DNA from: a virus | Direction: 5' to 3' (one strand) | DNA: 10,793 bases | Virus genome (UHGV): UHGV-0166775 | The notes under the pieces: model-generated | The model's input: only the letters and a program-made list of their open reading frames with translations | Told to the model about the DNA's origin: nothing | Database searches by the model: none | Shown here: piece by piece, positions 1 through 8,899 of the stretch | How the letters are laid out: each line of letters opens with the position of its first letter | Numbering within the stretch: the stretch's first letter is position 1 | Program-made: the position numbers and the translations under genes

Positions 1-49
1 TCACTGGTATCCGGTCTGTTCTCCCGTCAGCGGGGAGGAGGAGGTGGTA

Positions 50-328
50 ATGGCAAATAATCTTCCCGGATTACTGAATGCGGCGTTGTGTACGGTTATC
101 GTGCTGACGCTTTTTTTCTACCGCAGAAAAGCGTCCCGACACAAACCGCTGATATCGTGGTGTGCCTGGTGTCTGATGCTGCTGTATGCGATAACGCCGT
201 TAAGTTATCTGTGTGGTCATCCCTTGCCGGCAGACTGGCTGGTGGTGGTGCTGAATCTGGTGTTTGGTGTTCTGGTGGTGCGTGCGCGCGGTAATGTTTC
301 AAAAATTTTTGCCTTACTGAGTGGCTGA
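50..328 (+). CDS. Putative class I holin, 92 aa with three predicted transmembrane segments
   Basis: ORF track 44..328; I place the start at ATG 50, preceded by a purine-rich SD (ggaggaggagg, 36-46). Three hydrophobic stretches (LLNAALCTVIVLTLFFY, LISWCAWCLMLLYAITPLSYL, WLVVVLNLVFGVLVV) with a charged C-terminus. Stop TGA 326-328 sits 1 nt before the endolysin ATG. Function inferred from size, topology and position, not from a recognised homolog. Confidence 0.6.
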   Translation: MANNLPGLLNAALCTVIVLTLFFYRRKASRHKPLISWCAWCLMLLYAITPLSYLCGHPLPADWLVVVLNLVFGVLVVRARGNVSKIFALLSG

Positions 329-329
329 T

Positions 330-875
330 ATGAAATCGAGAGATGAAGTTTTTGATGAAATCCTGGGAAAAGAGGGGGGCTACGTCAGTCACCCTGACGA
401 TACAGGTGGTGCAACGAAGTGGGGCATAACTGAAAAAGTGGCGCGGTCACATGGGTACCGTGGCGATATGCGTGATTTGAGCCGCGGGCAGGCGCTGGAA
501 ATTCTGGAGGCAGACTACTGGTACGGACCGAATTTCGACAAGGTGGCAAACCTGTCTGCGGACATTGCCGCAGAGCTTTGCGACACGGGCGTGAACATGG
601 GTCCGGCAGTTGCGGCAAAGATGCTTCAGCGCTGGCTGAATGTATTTAACCAGAAGGGGATGCTGTATCCGGACATGGATACAGACGGGTGTATCGGCCC
701 ACGAACCATTAACGCACTACGCGTATTCCTGGAAAAACGCGGTAAAGATGGCGAACTGGTGATGCTGACAGCCCTGAACTGTACGCAGGGTGAGCGTTAT
801 CTGGCGCTGGCAGAGAAACGCGAGGCTAACGAGTCGTTTGTCTATGGCTGGATGAAAGAGCGCGTTGGTTTATAA
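330..875 (+). CDS. Endolysin, GH108-family N-acetylmuramidase with C-terminal peptidoglycan-binding domain
   Basis: ORF track 321..875 (GTG); I prefer ATG 330. N-terminus carries the EGGY signature (ILGKEGGYVSHPDDTGGATKWGIT) typical of glycoside hydrolase family 108 lysozymes such as phage N4 gp61. C-terminal half looks like a PG_binding_3-type domain. Sits directly after the holin. Confidence 0.8.
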   Translation: MKSRDEVFDEILGKEGGYVSHPDDTGGATKWGITEKVARSHGYRGDMRDLSRGQALEILEADYWYGPNFDKVANLSADIAAELCDTGVNMGPAVAAKMLQRWLNVFNQKGMLYPDMDTDGCIGPRTINALRVFLEKRGKDGELVMLTALNCTQGERYLALAEKREANESFVYGWMKERVGL

Positions 876-883
876 ACTCATCG

Positions 884-910
884 AAAAGGTCACTTCGGTG
901 GCTTTTTTAT
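884..910 (+). terminator. Intrinsic terminator-like hairpin after endolysin (UUCG tetraloop plus U-tract)
   Basis: Stem ggtcac (888-893) / gtggct (898-903) with two G-U pairs, loop ttcg (894-897), T-run 903-908. Confidence 0.5.
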
Positions 911-940
911 TGTTCAAAAAACGAAAGAACGGAGGTACGT

Positions 941-1222
941 ATGTACGCACTGAAAAAGATTACGGTAACTGAAGATGGTCGTCAGGTTGAGGAAGTGCAT
1001 GTCCTGGGGGATATGTATCGTATGGAGTTTTACCCGCGTAATACCCATCTGGCAGCAAAAATTGAGTATTGCCGGAACGGGAATATTTCATGTTTGCAGG
1101 TAGAGAAAACGGATGAGGCTTATATCACTACGCTGAACGGCGATACGATGCGTTGCATCTGTCGCGGCGACAGTAAAGCCCGGAATGAAATGGCCAGATG
1201 TCGTACTCATACCAGTGAATAA
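941..1222 (+). CDS. Hypothetical 93-aa cysteine-rich soluble protein (moron candidate)
   Basis: ATG 941 with strong SD (acggaggtacgt ATG). E. coli-like codon usage (ctg, cgt, ggt). No TM segment or signal peptide; five Cys (C44, C51, C72, C74, C87). I do not recognise the family. Occupies the position where Rz/Rz1 spanins sit in lambda. Confidence 0.5.
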   Translation: MYALKKITVTEDGRQVEEVHVLGDMYRMEFYPRNTHLAAKIEYCRNGNISCLQVEKTDEAYITTLNGDTMRCICRGDSKARNEMARCRTHTSE

Positions 1223-1267
1223 CAAGTAAAACCCCGGCGGCTGAAACAACCAAGGGGTTAACAGTGT

Positions 1268-1295
1268 AAATAAAACTGCCCATATTGATGGGCAG
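1268..1295 (-). terminator. Intrinsic terminator of bor (minus strand)
   Basis: Perfect 8-bp stem ctgcccat (1276-1283) / atgggcag (1288-1295), loop attg. On the minus strand it is followed by TTTTATTT (plus 1268-1275), 10 nt downstream of the bor stop. Confidence 0.6.
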
Positions 1296-1304
1296 CGCAT
1301 GTAA

Positions 1305-1598
1305 TTATTGTGAGCAATAGACCCGAGCTTCAAGCGGAGTATAAATGCCTAAAGTAATAAAACCGAGCAATCCATTTACGAATGTTTGCTGGGTTTCAGT
1401 TTTAACAACTTTATCTGCGCCACCACAAATTTTGGCTGCATCGACAGTTTTCTTCTGACCAATTCCTGAAACGAAGAAATGATGAGTGATGGTTTCCTTC
1501 GGTGTTACTGTTGTAGGTTTGTTTTCAACTGTAAACGTCTGTTGAGCACATCCAGAGATAAGCAGCGCCAGTGTGAAAGTGAGTAGCGTTTTTTTCAT
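1305..1598 (-). CDS. bor: Bor outer-membrane lipoprotein (serum-resistance protein, Iss family)
   Basis: 97 aa. MKKTLLTFTLALLISGCAQQTFTV... matches lambda Bor almost residue for residue from memory, including lipobox LISGC and C-terminus ARVYCSQ. Minus strand, opposite to the late operon, as in lambda. Confidence 0.93.
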   Translation of the reverse strand: MKKTLLTFTLALLISGCAQQTFTVENKPTTVTPKETITHHFFVSGIGQKKTVDAAKICGGADKVVKTETQQTFVNGLLGFITLGIYTPLEARVYCSQ

Positions 1599-1822
1599 CG
1601 TGTGATTCCCGTTGTGTTTTTAAGTTTGGTGCATCGTATTTGTGGAAATTTAAACAAAACCTAAACAATGAGTTGAAATCTCATATTGTTAATGTTTATT
1701 AAAGTATGCCAGATGTGCTGTATCTTTACTGTATACCCAGATTAACTATGGCCACAGCACCGACTGGTAACTCCTGTGTGGGAGTGCCGGCTACTGAGGC
1801 GGATCAAACCGGACGTTATGGT

Positions 1823-2233
1823 TTAGCGTGGAAAAATTTGAGTCGTGTTCTGGATGCTTTCGGTAAACAATAATGAGTTGTCAAAGGTATAGTAATATCT
1901 TTTGTGTTCGTGGATATTTGTAACCCATCGGAAAACTCCAGCTTTAGCCAGATTTACCCTGTATTCATGAAATGTGATTTCTCTTGATTTCAACTTATGA
2001 AGGTAAGTTTCTATAAGTCGCGTGTCTCTGCAAAAGCTAACATGAATAACATCATGGAAACCTTTTATTAACACCGTGTTATCGCTCTCAAATACAATGT
2101 GAATATTACCTGTGGCTAAATAGTAAATGTAATGTGAGACATTGTGGCGTTTTAGTTCAGAGTAAAACCGGTCACAGTTTAAATCTTTCCGCACTTGATC
2201 AAATATTTCTTTAAAAATGGCAACCTGAGCCAT
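1823..2233 (-). CDS. Hypothetical 136-aa protein in AT-rich accessory island; possibly YbcV/YdfO-like (DUF1398) prophage protein
   Basis: ORF on minus strand with ATG at 2231-2233 and an SD-like aagggga upstream (rc of 2239-2245). AT-rich codon usage unlike the neighbouring head genes. Same orientation and position relative to bor as borD-ybcV in the DLP12 prophage. Family assignment is from memory of gene order and size only, not verified at sequence level. Confidence 0.6.
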
Positions 2234-2407
2234 CAGTATCCCCTTGTATATGATATGAGGGGCGTAGTCTGCATGAGTGCTTTTAATACTGCAATCTGGT
2301 CAGATGTCTTTATCGTATATTGATGATTATTGTCGGATAGTATGAGGTTTTCTCAACGCATGGAAATACCGGAAGGTGCGAAAATTACTAAGTAAGAAGA
2401 GTTACAT

Positions 2408-2432
2408 AAGCCCTTCATACAGTGAAGGGCTT
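2408..2432. repeat. Perfect 10-bp inverted repeat (stem-loop) aagcccttca-tacag-tgaagggctt
   Basis: Arms 2408-2417 and 2423-2432 are exact reverse complements with a 5-nt loop. No adjacent U-tract on either strand. Confidence 0.5.
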
Positions 2433-2508
2433 CTGTAATCTTAGAAATAAAAAACCGGTCATAGGGAGCTACACAGAACCGGTCGGCGAAGACCGCCAAT
2501 ACCACCCA

Positions 2509-2520
2509 TGCATCGATGCA
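2509..2520. repeat. 12-bp perfect palindrome tgcatcgatgca
   Basis: Self-complementary 12-mer. A partial copy atgcatcga recurs at 2564-2572. A second palindrome caatagc-t-gctattg lies at 2533-2547. Confidence 0.4.
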
Positions 2521-2843
2521 ACATACTAATGACAATAGCTGCTATTGATGTAAATGCAATGTTATGCATCGACGAAAATAAAAAACCGGCAGGGGAAATC
2601 CATTGAAGACTTGCCGGTGGCAAAAGTTGCCAATGCTTTTATAACCGTAGTCACAGAGTTACGAAGTGCAACACCGAATGCTGCTGGTATATGGATGAAT
2701 GGCGTTTCAATGATGTGCATCATTCAAATCACAAATAGTATTGATACTTATTCTCGGTTTTGCGGGTCCTTTCCGGTGATCCGGCAGGCTACGGGGCGGC
2801 GACCTCGCGGGTTTTCGCTATTTACGAGTTTTTTTGAGGTGAT

Positions 2844-8874: not shown

Positions 8875-8899
8875 AAAGGCCGCCTGTGCGGCTTTTTTT
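8875..8899 (+). terminator. Terminator-like GC hairpin plus T7 tract between D and E
   Basis: Stem gccgc (8879-8883) / gcggc (8888-8892), loop ctgt, followed by ttttttt (8893-8899). The a-t pairs a8875-a8877 with t8894-t8896 could extend the stem. Confidence 0.45.

Follow-up and report, generated by a model that had tools for sequence, protein, structure and literature searches.

A single-gene cassette with a terminator-like hairpin in front probably accounts for the 93-amino-acid reading frame behind the endolysin of a lambdoid Escherichia coli prophage

The window analysed here, meaning the whole stretch of 10,793 nucleotides of virus genome UHGV-0166775, represents the late region of a lambdoid prophage of E. 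coli. We studied the reading frame (ORF) of 93 amino acids that lies between its endolysin gene and bor, where the following features were located.

ends at 60, plus strand: Phage_holin_8 gene, 3′ end only (upstream part read in locus L001)
50..328, plus strand: holin of the Phage_holin_3_7 family with three transmembrane (TM) segments (PF05449, 2.3e-20; phrog_217, holin)
330..875, plus strand: endolysin with GH108 and PG_binding_3 domains (PF05838, 1.1e-24; PF09374, 2.2e-24)
883..908, plus strand: terminator-like hairpin, left boundary of the cassette (terminator scan and folding)
931..935, plus strand: Shine-Dalgarno (SD) sequence GGAGG, 5 nt before the ATG (read from the sequence)
941..1222, plus strand: the 93-aa ORF, ATG start, member of phrog_33497 (HMM match, 2.8e-50)
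1006..1010, plus strand: G5 run within the ORF, a G6 frameshift in most copies of the allele lineage
1230..1259, plus strand: remnant of the 3′ cassette hairpin, AACCCC...GGGGTT (alignment with L002 and L033)
1262..1273, plus strand: stub of the last 12 nt of Rz (lambda Rz/rzpD; lambda homology)
1275..1296, minus strand: bor terminator, with a T-run on the minus strand only
1305..1598, minus strand: bor lipoprotein gene, convergent with the 93-aa ORF (PF06291, 1.6e-30; phrog_260)

Beyond bor, a DUF1398 gene is followed by Nu1/terminase and lambda-type head genes. The flanking context was taken from a near-identical sister prophage (locus L001) in E. coli 357900, which is inserted between ydfJ and rspB, presumably the Qin prophage site, and has a truncated tail-fibre gene. 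The two holin-family genes stand in tandem (window 1-328; L001 10133-11453) and overlap by 11 nt, encoding a Phage_holin_8 protein of 130 aa and a Phage_holin_3_7 protein of 92 aa. Upstream of both in L001 we found TerB-family and DUF3927 (TciB-like) moron genes.

The ORF matched phrog_33497 of the PHROGs collection over residues 1-92, on positions 1-94 of the 95 in the model, as did all 19 aligned family members, and nothing set it apart from this family, which carries no functional annotation. The family is very small: 30 clusters were obtained in a search of 5.8 billion proteins, and a set of 1.84 billion proteins contained 20 representatives at 50% identity. It is confined to prophages, with hosts in E. 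coli/Shigella, Salmonella, Edwardsiella, Lelliottia, Xenorhabdus, Proteus and Providencia plus an Aeromonadaceae MAG, and every named member is annotated 'hypothetical protein'. The single record with the gene in a phage collection was that of the Stx2k-converting phage phiSTEC1575, and a scan of genome contigs gave only three loci (Edwardsiella ictaluri, Aeromonadaceae MAG). Neither the single ORF sequence nor the set of all 19 aligned members had a match in Pfam, NCBIfam or PADLOC, a literature search with the N-terminal peptide found no paper, and Rfam found no match in window positions 1-2600.

Compared with 26 distinct intact alleles, the ORF gave dN/dS values of 0.09-0.23. The family alignment, which reaches down to 50% identity, holds 19 invariant columns, including an N-terminal MYALK, and the SD sequence GGAGG is kept in the E. 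coli alleles and takes the form AAGGA or GAGGA in distant ones. The low dN/dS, the homologues in several genera and a confident AF2 model (described below) indicate that the ORF is a real, functional gene under purifying selection.

The AF2 model, built on the family alignment (pLDDT 90.2, pTM 0.78), consists of seven strands (residues 2-74) followed by a C-terminal helix (78-91), a region that is variable and is missing in members of 78-81 aa. The ORF product has no hydrophobic segment (top 19-residue Kyte-Doolittle mean 0.07) and a net charge of -0.3 at pH 7 (-4.4 to +1.7 in the family), and we found no conserved catalytic-looking motif and no membrane or export signal in it. The product is thus predicted to be soluble and cytoplasmic, with its beta domain spanning about 75 residues. 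This agrees with the first-pass annotation, which had described a soluble 93-aa protein with its own strong SD and five cysteines. Its label 'Cys-rich' applies to the window ORF but is a local trait: the cysteines number from 0 to 5 across the family, and C74 alone is near-conserved. Because the cysteines are not conserved, metal or disulfide chemistry based on them was rejected as the family function.

Structural searches gave no closer lead. Foldseek found nothing in the PDB below E 0.4, and a sequence-profile search of the PDB returned only chance matches to the Rubisco small subunit at E 0.03 or worse. The best structural neighbour, the SspB substrate-binding domain (PDB 1ou9), is also a small beta domain and superposes over 67 residues, but the match is not convincing. 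In BFVD, Foldseek found only uncharacterised proteins of like size from diverse phages, with TM values of 0.6-0.7. Homology and structure prediction thus gave no annotated family or fold match from which a molecular activity could be read.

The window carries the minority intact allele of its lineage. In all eight other loci of the allele lineage the G5 run is a G6 run and the product is cut to 33 aa; PGAP flags the gene as 'frameshifted' in strain 357900. Moreover, among the matches listed, nine of the ten E. coli sequences of at least 99% identity are 1 nt longer than the query. In a collection of 15 billion proteins, 74-aa frameshift fragments were found on 331+279 contigs versus 32+25+7 for the intact 93-aa form, which makes the fragments roughly ten times commoner than intact proteins in public data. 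Since the G6 frameshift predominates, the gene is evidently dispensable in this lineage.

The earlier reading had placed an intrinsic terminator between the endolysin and the ORF and the bor terminator downstream of it, and both were recovered. The upstream element has an A/U-extended core, GGUCAC-UUCG-GUGGC(U), with a UUCG loop, and runs into six Ts at 903-908. It folds at -12.4 kcal/mol (z = -4.83; none of 200 shuffles was as stable), and the bor terminator at -14.4 kcal/mol (z = -3.26). To compare the upstream hairpin with those of relatives we collected 88 loci carrying the gene, whose 110 nt of upstream sequence fell into 42 distinct sequences. In 49 of 51 distinct contexts the ATG was preceded, at a distance of 24-43 nt, by a hairpin with a T-run, and the interval in between holds nothing but an A-rich spacer and the SD. 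The stem occurs in several forms (GGTCAC/GTGGCC, GGTCGC/GCGGCC, GATCGC/GCGGTC, GGCTGC/GCAGCC and CCTCGC/GCGGGG), and 87% of its cells are paired compared to at most 70% in slid controls. In addition, we counted 13 double-sided stem changes versus 3.1 in shuffles, with none of 500 shuffles as high. An A-U pair and G-U pairs lie in the core of the window hairpin, which is weaker than the hairpins of relatives. With its stem-loop, U-run and conserved structure, the element at 883-908 is a predicted intrinsic terminator.

A second terminator-like hairpin lies 3′ of the stop codon in 31 of the 51 contexts. In relatives the counterpart of 1230-1259 runs into TTTTT and is scored as a terminator, whereas in the window this T-tract has been replaced by lambda-like sequence, which leaves the ORF without a complete downstream terminator on the plus strand. 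The description of the ORF as terminator-flanked held with this qualification. Elsewhere in the window, another hairpin of this type (GGCCGC-CTGT-GCGGC TTTTTTT, 8878-8898) lies between the D-like decoration and E-like major capsid genes; the motif has two matches in the window versus 0.01 expected by chance. The like hairpin at this second site suggests that such hairpins are ordinary read-through elements of this late operon.

When the surroundings of the gene were compared, its left neighbours proved to be unrelated. They include GH108, M15, GH24-type and NlpC-like endolysins, a gene for a Cys/His-rich protein of 68-71 aa, a tRNA-Phe gene and a Mu-F-like head protein. We counted at least seven different upstream neighbours and three operon positions, the gene being always co-oriented with the phage late genes. 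It stands after the endolysin in the window, in the interval between endolysin and Rz/Rz1 in others, before the holin and behind a tRNA in a third group, and among head genes in Proteus. In the Proteus prophages (L076-L089, e.g. L080 4951-5271) the Mu-F-like head protein gene precedes it and the scaffold and SPP1-gp13-like capsid genes come after it, and a hairpin terminator stands on either side, the two being near-identical. These comparisons indicate that the gene moves as a single-gene cassette made up of hairpin and T-run, an A-rich spacer of 25-40 nt, SD and ORF, often with a 3′ hairpin. The first-pass annotation had likewise suspected an independently acquired cassette, and this is borne out by its own hairpin and by its occurrence after at least four types of endolysin, after a tRNA or in a head-gene cluster.

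Several further observations were made on these loci. The twin hairpins of the Proteus copies resemble a recombination or insertion footprint. In L016 (4889-5031), the 5′ part of a gene for a 60-aa lipoprotein is fused in frame to the ORF spacer and the left hairpin arm is lost; this recombinant shows recombination exactly at the hairpin/T-run. In Xenorhabdus prophages (L062 2716-2791, L064, L067 and L079 4866-4941), a tRNA-Phe gene is found directly upstream of the hairpin. Here the hairpin could terminate a short constitutive late-promoter transcript in a tR′-like manner, and the ORF would be the first late gene. No neighbour accompanies the ORF more often across genera than the Cys/His-rich protein of 68-71 aa (phrog_4298; motif M.YY.H..DHEVH..C...YLGD..C...GC..CC..CH.S). 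Its gene was located at L006 5705-5920, L007 3332-3538 and L008 5673-5879, and also in L003, L020-24, L058, L068 and L072. In L008 it is bracketed by two hairpin copies and looks like a second such cassette.

Because the ORF holds the slot just 3′ of the endolysin, as Rz/Rz1 (PF03245/PF06085) do, the first reading had looked for spanins there. We scanned window positions 1-2700 from all starts in all frames. No ORF with a lipobox was found except Bor on the minus strand, and no ORF with an N-terminal TM domain (TMD) was found downstream of the endolysin on the plus strand, in accordance with the earlier observation. Unlike Rz/Rz1, the ORF has no TMD, lipobox, embedded gene or HMM match. The features of an i-spanin are missing from it: it lacks an N-terminal TMD and a match to PF03245, and its model is beta-rich and not coiled-coil. 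No o-spanin candidate with a lipobox was found in window 1-2700 apart from Bor, nor between Q and Nu1 in the sister locus, and neither a lipobox nor a C-terminal TMD, as in a unimolecular spanin of the T1 gp11 type, was seen in the ORF or in plus-strand ORFs downstream of the endolysin. The all-frame scan also led us to reject spanins nested within the endolysin gene or the ORF itself. The suggestion that spanins might lie upstream of the window was not borne out either: nothing spanin-like is annotated in the sister prophage from the integrase to the tail fibre, and a scan of its Q-Nu1 interval found no spanin-like ORF.

The sequence downstream of the ORF suggests how this gap arose. Similarity to other copies of the cassette ends past the 3′ hairpin at 1230-1259, at the site of the relatives' T-tract. 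Homology to lambda begins at window position 1262, which corresponds to lambda 46416, and lambda Rz ends at 46427. Furthermore, in the sampled rows of 3,497 matching E. coli genomes, homology to the bor/iss flank mostly begins at the same base, under annotated rzpD. The junction of cassette hairpin and Rz stub was found in 12 complete-genome E. coli records only. Since bor is normally preceded by Rz/Rz1 and only a 12-nt stub is present here, the absence of spanins reads as the scar of a deletion or recombination that joined the 3′ hairpin of the cassette to the last 12 nt of Rz beside bor. The window's prophage belongs to a rare, partly decayed, spanin-less lineage. Lambda mutants in Rz/Rz1 still lyse unless millimolar divalent cations stabilise the outer membrane, and a spanin-less prophage would therefore be viable in many conditions with no substitute needed.

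We also asked how the gene might be expressed. A consensus scan found no sigma-70-like promoter in 876-940, although weak or non-consensus promoters, such as one overlapping the hairpin, could escape such a scan. A clear promoter overlapping the hairpin was rejected, as the best -35 candidate 17 bp upstream of TATTGT/TATTAC matches at no more than one or two of six positions by eye and the scan found none there. From its sequence, the cassette would have no promoter of its own and would lie behind a terminator, so that essentially only terminator-resistant (Q-modified) late transcription would reach the gene. It would be shielded from unmodified read-through in the lysogen and efficiently translated late in the lytic cycle. 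The flanking hairpins may double as short joints of shared homology for shuffling the cassette between late operons.

The first-pass annotation had offered, as the other way out, that the outer membrane is disrupted by a different step in this phage. In this reading the 93-aa protein, disruptin-like or other, would replace the spanins. The window and the sister prophage do lack spanins, and near the gene Rz/Rz1 are missing from most E. coli relatives, the Stx2k phage record among them. There is also a precedent, since about 15% of the phages of Gram-negative hosts have no spanins and phiKT uses a non-spanin peptide, the disruptin gp28 of 56 aa with a net charge of +7 and a predicted helical/amphipathic character (bioRxiv 10.1101/515445). 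Like gp28, our protein is small, lacks an export signal and is encoded near the lysis genes of a spanin-less phage; however, at 93 aa, with near-neutral charge and a folded, mostly beta domain, it does not share the disruptin features. The company that the gene keeps elsewhere also speaks against a substitute. In L033 and L034 the order is Phage_holin_8, Phage_holin_3_7, M15 endolysin, ORF, a 45-aa tail-anchored protein and then a bona fide Rz with embedded Rz1 (PF03245, 1.1e-38; PF06085, 3e-21). In L058 a DUF2514 protein with a TMD comes next after the ORF, a lipobox ORF being embedded in its gene, and in Xenorhabdus and some Proteus/Providencia loci it stands ahead of holin, endolysin and Rz/Rz1. 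The gene and Rz/Rz1 occur in one cassette in Xenorhabdus, Proteus and Edwardsiella-like loci, other Proteus copies sit in the head module, the Rz stub in the window indicates a deletion, and the gene is mostly frameshifted in the very lineage that lacks spanins. A spanin pair upstream of the holin, together with assignment of the ORF to a known family, had been named beforehand as findings that would speak against the first reading; neither was found, and the idea of a substitute fails on this other evidence, which makes it very improbable. The comparison of loci argues that the protein plays no part in disrupting the envelope.

Other roles were weighed in the same way. A cytoplasmic regulator of lysis timing that binds holin or endolysin, analogous in role to T4 RIII and P1 LydB, would fit a small, soluble protein whose gene is late and co-oriented and, in nearly every context from Enterobacteriaceae and Xenorhabdus, stands in or beside the lysis cassette, in some copies even between endolysin and Rz. 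The holins involved, however, are unrelated (Phage_holin_8/3_7, Phage_holin_3_1 and others) and the endolysins are of at least four types, so that there would be no constant partner, and the Proteus copies lie among head genes far from any lysis gene; we hold such a regulator to be quite unlikely. As the gene nearly always adjoins lysis genes in Enterobacteriaceae, it may all the same have some lysis-related accessory role. The Proteus copies, lying between the Mu-F-like head protein and the scaffold, point instead to an accessory protein of virion assembly or DNA packaging, as do the inferred late expression and the fact that in many loci of E. coli and Edwardsiella the gene directly precedes the one for the small terminase. 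Here too the partner systems are non-homologous (Nu1/gpA, DUF1441, Terminase_4/HK97-type, SPP1 gp13-like capsid), most relatives of each packaging or head system do without the gene, and most copies in the window's lineage are frameshifted, which leaves this role distinctly improbable. The frameshifts in the closest copies and the lack of family annotation would also suit a chance ORF or a dead pseudogene, with the hairpins alone being of importance. This is the least probable reading, given the strong purifying selection, the invariant columns, the confident folded model and the intact window copy with its consensus SD.

We are left with a comparison to the morons of lambdoid phages, a concept of Hendrix and Juhala exemplified by lambda bor and lom and by the extra genes of HK97/HK022. 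Like a moron, the cassette is a single extra gene that is present or absent between late-operon neighbours that are otherwise conserved; it has several insertion points in mosaic prophages and uses the same hot spot as bor. A terminator-like hairpin marks its left boundary, and one also follows the gene in those 31 of 51 contexts. Its insertion is variable, as lambda and DLP12-type prophages run from Rz to bor without the gene. Classical morons come with a promoter of their own that allows expression from the repressed prophage, whereas the cassette has no promoter-like site and a conserved terminator precedes the gene instead. A further difference is its co-orientation with the late genes, which implies late lytic expression. 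The cassette is most likely a moron-like accessory gene with a terminator rather than a promoter in front. Taken together, we consider it likely that the ORF is a real gene in a late, promoterless cassette, that it is not a spanin, and that the spanins of this prophage were lost by deletion.

As to what the protein does, our low-confidence guess is that it is a dispensable accessory factor which binds another protein or a nucleic acid in the cytoplasm, acting for example in counter-defence or as a factor that modulates the host or a competitor. A more far-reaching proposal, that the cassette represents a new promoterless class gated by antitermination and hopping between late operons of unrelated prophages with terminator hairpins as recombination joints, its product, a beta domain lacking a confident structural relative in the PDB, being a late-acting inhibitor of a host defence or factor, is in our judgement unlikely.

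In about 35 IMG/VR loci and in L002 (6434-6791) and L009 (5354-5711), two small genes follow the ORF and Rz/Rz1 are not found. The same two genes occur in most E. coli relatives, including phage phiSTEC1575-Stx2k. The first encodes a protein of 45-57 aa with a C-terminal TM segment ending in RWW (phrog_1115/4493), and the second a lipoprotein of 60 aa with an LLVGC lipobox and a mature part of 30 aa with three cysteines (phrog_7528); in L033 the tail-anchored TM protein precedes a true Rz/Rz1 instead. Neither protein fits the architecture of an i-, o- or u-spanin, and together they might form an exclusion system or a non-canonical envelope factor. A bolder variant for the Stx2k-type phages of E. 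coli would join the ORF, the tail-anchored protein and the lipoprotein into a non-canonical envelope-disruption set.

These results remove a false lead, in that the absence of spanins in this prophage reads as a scar and not as evidence of a new lysis mechanism. The E. coli relatives with the tail-anchored peptide and the 60-aa lipoprotein would be a better place to look for non-canonical outer-membrane disruption. The protein family itself is a tractable target, with about 80 aa and a confident fold without a solved relative, and it is frequent in Proteus and also occurs in Stx-converting phages. The upstream terminator hairpin, which is under structural selection and moves with the gene, offers a tidy case for the study of how accessory genes are shuffled and how they are silenced except under antiterminated late transcription.
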